Below are positions 2,912 through 3,205 of a stretch of 64,000 nt of DNA, in pieces; the first letter of the stretch is position 1, and every line of letters begins with the position of its first letter. Made by a program: the position numbers and the translations under genes. The stretch is from Albugo candida. Taxonomy: Eukaryota. Location: contig JBDOQK010000030.1 in the NCBI GenBank assembly GCA_040437565.1, positions 62,001-126,000 of the forward strand, in the 5' to 3' direction. A model generated the notes under the pieces. The model saw only the letters and a program-made list of their open reading frames with translations. It was not told the origin of the DNA and did not search any database.

Positions 2912-2920
2912 TATATATAA
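2912..2920 (+). promoter_or_regulatory. TATA element upstream of the tRNA-like leader
   Basis: Same TATATATAA 9-mer and near-identical spacing (-34 to -26) as the tRNA-Ser gene. Confidence 0.5.
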
Positions 2921-2945
2921 TAAACTATACGTTACAGAGTTACTG

Positions 2946-3010
2946 TTCCCCGCGGCCGAGTGGTGTAGGAACGCAATTTTCTCGCACGGGTTCGAATCCA
3001 CGCGGTGTAT
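2946..3010 (+). promoter_or_regulatory. Degenerate tRNA-like Pol III leader (A box and B box, anticodon arm lost)
   Basis: A box CGGCCGAGTGG (2953-2963); B box GGTTCGAATCC (2989-2999); partial acceptor pairing TTCCCCG/CGGTGTA; only ~65 nt long with no anticodon stem. Confidence 0.65.
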
Positions 3011-3161
3011 AGTGCATGTATCGAAGCCTGACGTATCTATTTCATTAGATTAAGGGTCGGGTCAAATCTCATGCCATAATATGAGGTTTTCCTCATGATC
3101 GCTAGGGTGTCAGAAAAGAGTCACTCCATCTCCCATTCTGCCAATATGCATTCGAACATTT
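3011..3161 (+). ncRNA. Box H/ACA snoRNA, predicted guide for the LSU rRNA uridine equivalent to yeast psi2865 (snR46/SNORA16-type target)
   Basis: Lower stem GCATG/CATGC; pocket TATCGAAG/TCAAATCT; upper stems CCTGAC/GTCGGG and ATCTA/TAGAT; H box ATAATA (3076-3081) 14 nt from the pocket top; ACA (3156-3158) followed by TTTT. The pocket pairs 13 bp with conserved LSU UUUGA-U-C-CUUCGAUG. Confidence 0.8.
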
Positions 3162-3205
3162 TGATCCACCAGAAGACAATCTAATAAGATCACTTGAAAA
3201 TCGTA

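Follow-up and report, generated by a model that had tools for sequence, protein, structure and literature searches.

A candidate box H/ACA guide RNA gene behind a decayed tRNA in Albugo candida

We analysed a stretch of 64,000 nucleotides (nt) of the genome of Albugo candida (contig JBDOQK010000030.1, positions 62,001 to 126,000). Below, "the window" means this whole stretch, coordinates are counted from its first letter, and its G+C content is ~43%. The subject of this report is a short unit at about 2912-3162 on the plus strand, located between two minus-strand genes, one encoding an ECH-family protein and the other an SNF2/RAD54-like protein. The unit consists of a TATA-like element, a leader that appears to derive from a transfer RNA (tRNA), and a putative small nucleolar RNA (snoRNA) of the box H/ACA class that ends at a run of four T residues (T4). 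A normal tRNA gene lies upstream on the same strand and is used here as the reference for the promoter elements. The features are as follows.

1477-1559, plus strand: normal tRNA-Ser(UGA) gene, called by ARAGORN and Rfam, 1.4 kb upstream of the unit
2912-2920, plus strand: TATA-like element TATATATAA, located 42 nt upstream of the A-box 11-mer
2946-3007 (approximate), plus strand: tRNA-derived leader, read as the fossil of a class II-type tRNA; its start at 2946 is placed by the register of tRNA-Ser
2954-2964, plus strand: A-box 11-mer GGCCGAGTGGT, identical to tRNA-Ser positions 1486-1496
2977-2980, plus strand: first T4 run inside the unit, downstream of the A box and upstream of the B box, with CT after it; potential stop for RNA polymerase III (Pol III)
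2989-2999, plus strand: B box GGTTCGAATCC, exact, starting 35 nt past the start of the A-box 11-mer
3014-3074, plus strand: 5' guide hairpin, with lower stem 3014-3018/3070-3074 and pocket strands 3019-3026 and 3062-3069
3027-3032 with 3056-3061, plus strand: upper stem of the 5' hairpin, continued by an apical stem (predicted fold)
3076-3081, plus strand: H box ATAATA (consensus ANANNA), at a distance of 14 nt (3062-3075) from the first pocket nucleotide, 3062
3081-3096, plus strand: mini-hairpin AUGAGG-UUUU-CCUCAU of 14-16 nt in the hinge, separating the H box from the 3' hairpin; includes the second internal T4 run
3087-3090, plus strand: second internal T4 run, followed by CC, inside the hinge mini-hairpin
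3096-3154, plus strand: 3' hairpin, with lower stem 3096-3102/3148-3154 and pocket 3103-3110, 3141-3147
3111-3115 with 3136-3140, and 3118-3120 with 3130-3132, plus strand: upper stem of the 3' hairpin (predicted fold)
3156-3158, plus strand: ACA box, about 14-15 nt past the top of the 3' pocket
3159-3162, plus strand: T4 run adjoining the ACA box, with GA after it; candidate terminator for Pol III that would leave the usual end 3 nt past ACA with no need for trimming

The guide hairpins and their predicted ribosomal RNA targets

The segment 3011-3075 folds with a minimum free energy (MFE) of -20.3 kcal/mol into a lower stem, a pocket of 7-8 nt on each side and an upper stem, as in a classic H/ACA pocket hairpin. 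We searched for targets of this pocket at every uridine of the small subunit (SSU), 5.8S and large subunit (LSU) ribosomal RNA (rRNA) in a complete eukaryotic ribosomal DNA (rDNA) unit, L001, found on a metagenome contig. The pocket showed a bipartite match of 13 bp (5+8 bp) to the LSU sequence TTTGA[TC]CTTCGATG, and this was the only match in the scan with a score of at least 7. Its score of 12.5 was reached by only one of 2000 shuffled guides, and the distance from the target uridine to the H box is 14 nt, within the 14-16 nt expected for H/ACA RNAs. The 15-mer around the target lies inside a match to LSU_rRNA_eukarya in three of the four metagenome loci tested, the fourth being a locus without an Rfam match.

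To place the target on the yeast numbering, we used the table of 25S modifications in PMC5699541 for positions 2791-2975. With an offset of -33, all 16 modified yeast 25S positions fell on matching letters of the L001 LSU, compared with at most 8 of 16 for the 13 other offsets, and the target is therefore the equivalent of yeast 25S pseudouridine 2865 (psi2865). In yeast, this position is guided by snR46 (PMC5699541). Human ACA16/SNORA16 guides the same uridine (28S U4412), as does ACA-Eh-LSU3008 of Entamoeba. Both the pairing, with its 14-nt distance to the H box, and the identity of the target had been put forward in an initial annotation of this DNA, and both held up in these tests. Judged from sequence and predicted fold, there is good support for the unit being an H/ACA-type guide directed at the LSU counterpart of yeast 25S psi2865. 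The target is common to this RNA and to the snR46/SNORA16 family; homology to that family is not indicated by the covariance model.

In connection with the remainder of the RNA, the initial annotation had read the order hairpin-ANANNA-hairpin-ACA-TTTT. All of these elements are indeed in place, but the description needs amending at two points: an extra mini-hairpin, outside the textbook H/ACA plan, occupies the hinge, and the 3' hairpin is weak in the window allele. The latter depends on a single position. At 3151 the window has T, while A is found in all four of the public runs compared. A3151 pairs with U3099, and the MFE structure of 3011-3162 then becomes a canonical hairpin-hinge-hairpin-tail. 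Because all four runs read A, and because T weakens the lower stem of the 3' hairpin, the T of the window is either a minority allele or an assembly error.

In the canonical fold, the 3' pocket has one rRNA match with a score of at least 8, consisting of 4+5 Watson-Crick pairs at the equivalent of yeast U2923 and lying 14 nt from the ACA box. In yeast, psi2923, the A-loop uridine, is the site of snR10 (PMC5699541). It is only the coincidence with a known site that favours the U2923 equivalent, and we therefore propose this second target tentatively. A free scan over 210 pocket definitions had also returned a 14-bp SSU match for the 3' pocket; this candidate was rejected, as it leaves just 14 nt for the upper stem.

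A decayed tRNA with intact promoter boxes

The leader had been described in the initial annotation as a tRNA remnant in which the A and B boxes survive while the anticodon arm and most of the T-stem pairing are gone, and our data agree with this description. The A-box 11-mer GGCCGAGTGGT has two matches in the window, both of them exact, one in the fossil and the other in the A-box/D-loop region of tRNA-Ser. Counted from 2953, the A box has one mismatch to the A-box consensus, and the B box is exact. The order, strand and spacing of the two boxes fit a tRNA-type leader, with starts 35-36 nt apart and the B box ending 11 nt before position 3011. A scan for A/B-box pairs returned only three in the 64 kb, and the other two lie in repeat-like tRNA heads.

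Outside the boxes, an acceptor-like helix of five G-C pairs (2950-2954 with 3001-3005) and an intact T loop are recognisable, only two G-C pairs remain of the T stem, and an anticodon arm is missing. Folding of the leader gave no stable structure (z = +0.85). ARAGORN called no tRNA at the fossil, and the Rfam tRNA model was silent on it at E<=10 (searches of 2930-3175 and 1-8000); at the gathering score, tRNA-Ser alone was recognised by Rfam in the whole window. When the units of tRNA-Ser and of the leader were aligned with MAFFT, the A box came out in the wrong place, and this alignment was set aside. Taken together, these features support the view that the upstream piece is a decayed tRNA with preserved promoter boxes. 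Perfect boxes combined with vanished stems would be the pattern expected if a promoter function at the DNA level had outlived the tRNA function at the RNA level.

The 9-mer TATATATAA occurs at three sites in the window (1445, 2912 and 18965) versus 0.40 expected, and none of 100 shuffles reached three. The distance from the 9-mer to the A-box 11-mer is 42 nt at the fossil and 41 nt at tRNA-Ser, in keeping with the earlier claim that the element sits at the tRNA-Ser offset. RNA assembly X6 has a G at 2913, which leaves TATATAA intact. The third site, at 18965, is followed 96 nt downstream by an ATG-started open reading frame (ORF) that begins at 19061, and an Rfam search nearby gave no match, so that this site lends no support to a Pol III-specific TATA element; it could be an ordinary promoter of RNA polymerase II (Pol II) or belong to another small RNA gene. 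As a separate observation on the surroundings of 18964-18973, the plus strand has a T4 run ~115 nt further on, and the minus strand has a ~190-nt stretch ending in a T7 run (18781-18787 in plus-strand coordinates).

Neighbouring genes, sequencing runs and copy number

The genes on either side of the unit are listed below.

1641-2627, minus strand: ECH-family protein gene
3206-5457, minus strand: SNF2/RAD54-like gene
4241-4296, minus strand: GT..AG intron of 56 nt in the SNF2/RAD54-like gene, spliced in two RNA assemblies and kept in two DNA assemblies

The nearest named homologue of the ECH-family protein is a protein of Albugo laibachii Nc14 (76% identity), and for proteins from Phytophthora, Pythium and Peronospora the identity is ~50%, which points to an Albugo-like oomycete, in line with the initial annotation. 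The SNF2/RAD54-like gene is one of two SNF2-family helicase genes that stand head to head, ~550 nt apart (3206-5457 on the minus strand and 6012-8117 on the plus strand).

The stretch is present in 20 public sequencing runs from 14 studies. Two assemblies, X6 and X20, have contigs that skip the GT..AG intron at 4241-4296 and are therefore RNA assemblies, whereas X17 and X3, which retain it, are DNA. In X6, the RNA contig covers 2300-4400 completely, the full intergenic region included, with depth available as one figure per contig. In X20, which comes from the same study as X6, a contig begins at 3003 and no contig lies on 2889-3002; the contig end at 3003 could equally be the 3' end of the messenger RNA (mRNA) of the RAD54-like gene. 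Among the 13 variable places of 2300-4400, five are inside 2912-3162 and none falls in a box or guide nucleotide. By our estimate the probability of this outcome by chance is ~0.3, and the variant-free boxes and guides are thus not evidence of constraint.

We found no second copy of 2900-3170 in the 64-kb window, where similarity extended only up to 12-nt words, and no direct repeats or target-site duplication flanking the unit. Furthermore, one X3 DNA contig bridges the whole of 2300-4400 into unique flanks. These three results argue against a short interspersed element (SINE), for which the initial annotation would have expected dispersed copies with target-site duplications.

Elsewhere in the window, a ~245-nt element is present in two copies with 91% column identity, at 15250-15510 and 57235-57495, both on the minus strand. 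The copies have a tRNA-like head with A and B boxes and a common body ending in ...GACAAAGTA, and from its sequence the element looks like a tRNA-derived SINE family of the host genome. A G+C-rich tRNA-like piece at 57500-57593 on the plus strand has an exact B box at 57552-57562, and ARAGORN was silent on it. This piece abuts a run of N at 57594-57692, with a 13-nt string that is identical on both sides of the gap, and another N run ends near 57137.

Transcription of the unit and comparison with known systems

The snoRNA hairpin starts a few nucleotides past the fossil, and transcription must therefore begin in or before the fossil. The gene appears to have no room for a promoter of its own, starting as it does within ~5 nt of the end of the decayed tRNA. 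Transcription by Pol III from the A and B boxes of the fossil is plausible on the present sequence: the TATA-like element is at the tRNA-Ser offset, the A and B boxes have stayed intact in a leader devoid of structure, and the ACA box abuts TTTT. The reading that we favour is a single-copy box H/ACA guide gene of ~150 nt (~3011-3161), made by Pol III and located behind a fossil tRNA promoter; we consider the case for it to be about evenly poised.

If this reading is right, the A and B boxes of the fossil would recruit TFIIIC and TFIIIB, with the TATA-like element helping, and Pol III would start ~10 nt before box A (~2940-2946). The polymerase would pass the two internal T4 runs, both weak and with C as the next base, and stop at the T4 run that adjoins ACA and has a purine behind it. 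The leader (~65 nt) would then be removed and degraded, as at the C. elegans UM2 loci and yeast SNR52. In the mature RNA, the 5' pocket would present the LSU uridine equal to yeast 25S U2865, in the peptidyl-transferase region, to the dyskerin/Cbf5 small nucleolar ribonucleoprotein for isomerisation, and the 3' pocket may act likewise on the A-loop uridine equal to U2923. A bolder version, possible in our view and on the doubtful side of even, is that oomycetes have retained a class II tRNA fossil solely for its use as a Pol III promoter cassette, driving a dual-guide H/ACA snoRNA that acts on two uridines of the peptidyl-transferase region (the psi2865 and psi2923 equivalents).

A number of points weigh against the favoured reading. 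The two internal T4 runs, at 2977 and 3087 as the initial annotation had pointed out, would need to be read through in the proposed transcript. T4 is probably a working Pol III stop in this host, since tRNA-Ser has only T4 runs behind it, one directly behind the gene and followed by a purine (1559-1562) and the other at 1580-1583, with none longer within 60 nt. By a rough estimate, ~1 T4 run is expected by chance for a transcript of this length and composition, and there is thus no sign of T4 avoidance. The comparison of TATA offsets rests on one tRNA gene (n=1). The RNA contigs over the snoRNA body are unstranded and continuous with the RAD54-like mRNA, and are not specific to the snoRNA. Rfam, to which the initial annotation had looked for confirmation, matched no family to the unit at E<=10, snR46 and SNORA16 included (2930-3175; 1-8000). 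The rDNA used for the target search is a stand-in from a metagenome, other than the host's own. Lastly, the MFE structure of the window allele (T at 3151) pairs the 5' end with the 3' end and leaves the 3' hairpin weak, and the nine pairs of the 3' pocket were reached by 186 of 500 shuffles and are not significant alone.

With regard to the internal runs, both of them are followed by C, while both presumed terminators, that of tRNA-Ser and that of the unit, are followed by a purine. Braglia and colleagues are said to have found, in 2005, that a C after the T run weakens termination. Context effects and read-through in Pol III termination are documented in the excerpted text of PMC3141230. In the bolder version above, the internal stops would be leaky ones, weak T4 runs with C behind them.

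A rather unlikely alternative, which deserves the most attention among the competing explanations, is a genuine H/ACA snoRNA transcribed by Pol II. In this case the TATA-like element at 2912 would drive a capped precursor, and the fossil would be inert or at most a TFIIIC-binding part of a leader that is trimmed by exonucleases. Most independent eukaryotic H/ACA genes are Pol II units, which counts in favour of this possibility, as do the two internal T4 runs, which would hinder Pol III, and the third TATATATAA site at 18965, which lies 96 nt before an ATG-started ORF and suggests that the motif is not Pol III-specific. On the other hand, neutral decay severe enough to wreck the stems would be unlikely to spare both 11-nt boxes, the TATA offset matches that of tRNA-Ser, and the T run abutting the ACA box would have no role in a Pol II unit.

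We regard as very unlikely a plant-type dicistronic tRNA-snoRNA gene, in which the upstream piece would fold well enough for a cut by RNase P and RNase Z that sets the 5' end of the snoRNA. The 5-bp G+C acceptor-like helix and the intact T loop would suit such processing, and the snoRNA hairpin begins within ~5-8 nt of the end of this helix. However, the anticodon arm is missing, the T stem has only 2 bp, the leader has no stable fold, and a functional upstream tRNA, as this type of gene has, is not seen here by either ARAGORN or the Rfam tRNA model. Most unlikely of all is a tRNA-derived SINE, a retrocopy of a snoRNA or a fortuitous likeness, none of them functional as a guide: the genome does have tRNA-derived SINEs (the two window copies at 91% identity) and a further tRNA-like head at 57508-57562, but 2900-3170 resembles neither those SINEs nor other window DNA beyond 12-nt words, it has no target-site duplication, a DNA contig bridges it into unique flanks, and just one of the 2000 shuffles reached the score of its 13-bp match, which falls on a known pseudouridine site.

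Oomycete snoRNAs are essentially uncatalogued, and the unit adds to them an H/ACA guide, directed at one of the most conserved LSU pseudouridines. If it is a Pol III gene as favoured above, then the tRNA-remnant-leader strategy of nematodes, flies, yeast and plants would reach the stramenopiles, which would bear on whether this strategy is ancient or recurrent. The gene would also be a compact natural case in which the DNA-level features of a tRNA (the boxes) are separated from the RNA-level features (the stems). The dual-guide version, if true, would make it the first H/ACA unit made by Pol III outside animals, and stramenopiles would have their first defined case of a Pol III type-2 promoter serving a non-tRNA gene; this would reflect either an ancient eukaryotic strategy or convergence with nematodes, and one snoRNA would do what yeast splits between two (psi2865 and psi2923).

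Among known guides, snR46, ACA16/SNORA16 and ACA-Eh-LSU3008 have the targeted LSU uridine in common with the Albugo RNA; they differ from it in gene organisation and promoter, and there is no detectable similarity in sequence or by covariance model. As for gene organisation, Kruszka and colleagues reportedly described, in 2003, the plant dicistronic tRNA-Gly-snoR43, where the internal promoter of the tRNA drives the downstream snoRNA in one Pol III transcript. In the plant gene, a working tRNA is freed by RNase Z and the snoRNA belongs to the box C/D class; the Albugo unit has a dead tRNA and an H/ACA snoRNA. To our knowledge, the leader of yeast SNR52 is not recognisably tRNA-derived. As far as the excerpted source describes it, SNR52 resembles the Albugo unit in having a transcribed leader with A and B boxes that is removed in maturation; it differs in that SNR52 is box C/D and the Albugo unit H/ACA.

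The initial annotation had known tRNA-type leader units only for box C/D snoRNAs, a view that is corrected by the UM2 loci of C. elegans. According to the excerpted text of PMC2527325, these loci have tRNA-derived remnants with A and B boxes ~70 bp upstream of mature snoRNAs, their transcription begins 9-13 bp upstream of box A and terminates at TTTT, later T runs also being used to a measurable extent, and leader and snoRNA are transcribed jointly, also for the H/ACA snoRNA CeN55, while the leader does not accumulate. Also mentioned there are comparable snoRNAs made by Pol III in Drosophila, as well as SNR52 of yeast (PMC2527325). The likeness, within what that text covers, lies in the tRNA remnant with A and B boxes before the snoRNA, in the distance (here the hairpin lies ~65-70 nt past the inferred start) and in the H/ACA class found in both. 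In contrast to the single Albugo locus, known from its sequence, the UM2 arrangement as described there is recurrent at many loci and tested with reporters and mutations. The Albugo unit further differs from that description in its upstream TATA-like element and in retaining more tRNA sequence (the acceptor-like helix and D-loop letters identical to those of tRNA-Ser), and the lineages, nematode and oomycete, are different.

A full-text literature search found no paper on oomycete snoRNA gene organisation, and according to a 2015 preprint, oomycetes had no functionally defined Pol III promoter at that time (10.1101/025023). The novelty suggested for this unit in the initial annotation is thus retained as regards oomycetes and given up as regards the layout itself, which is known from C. 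elegans. Since the UM2 loci, including that of the H/ACA snoRNA CeN55, share the architecture, the arrangement is, by this comparison, not new in kind; it is new for the oomycete lineage only.
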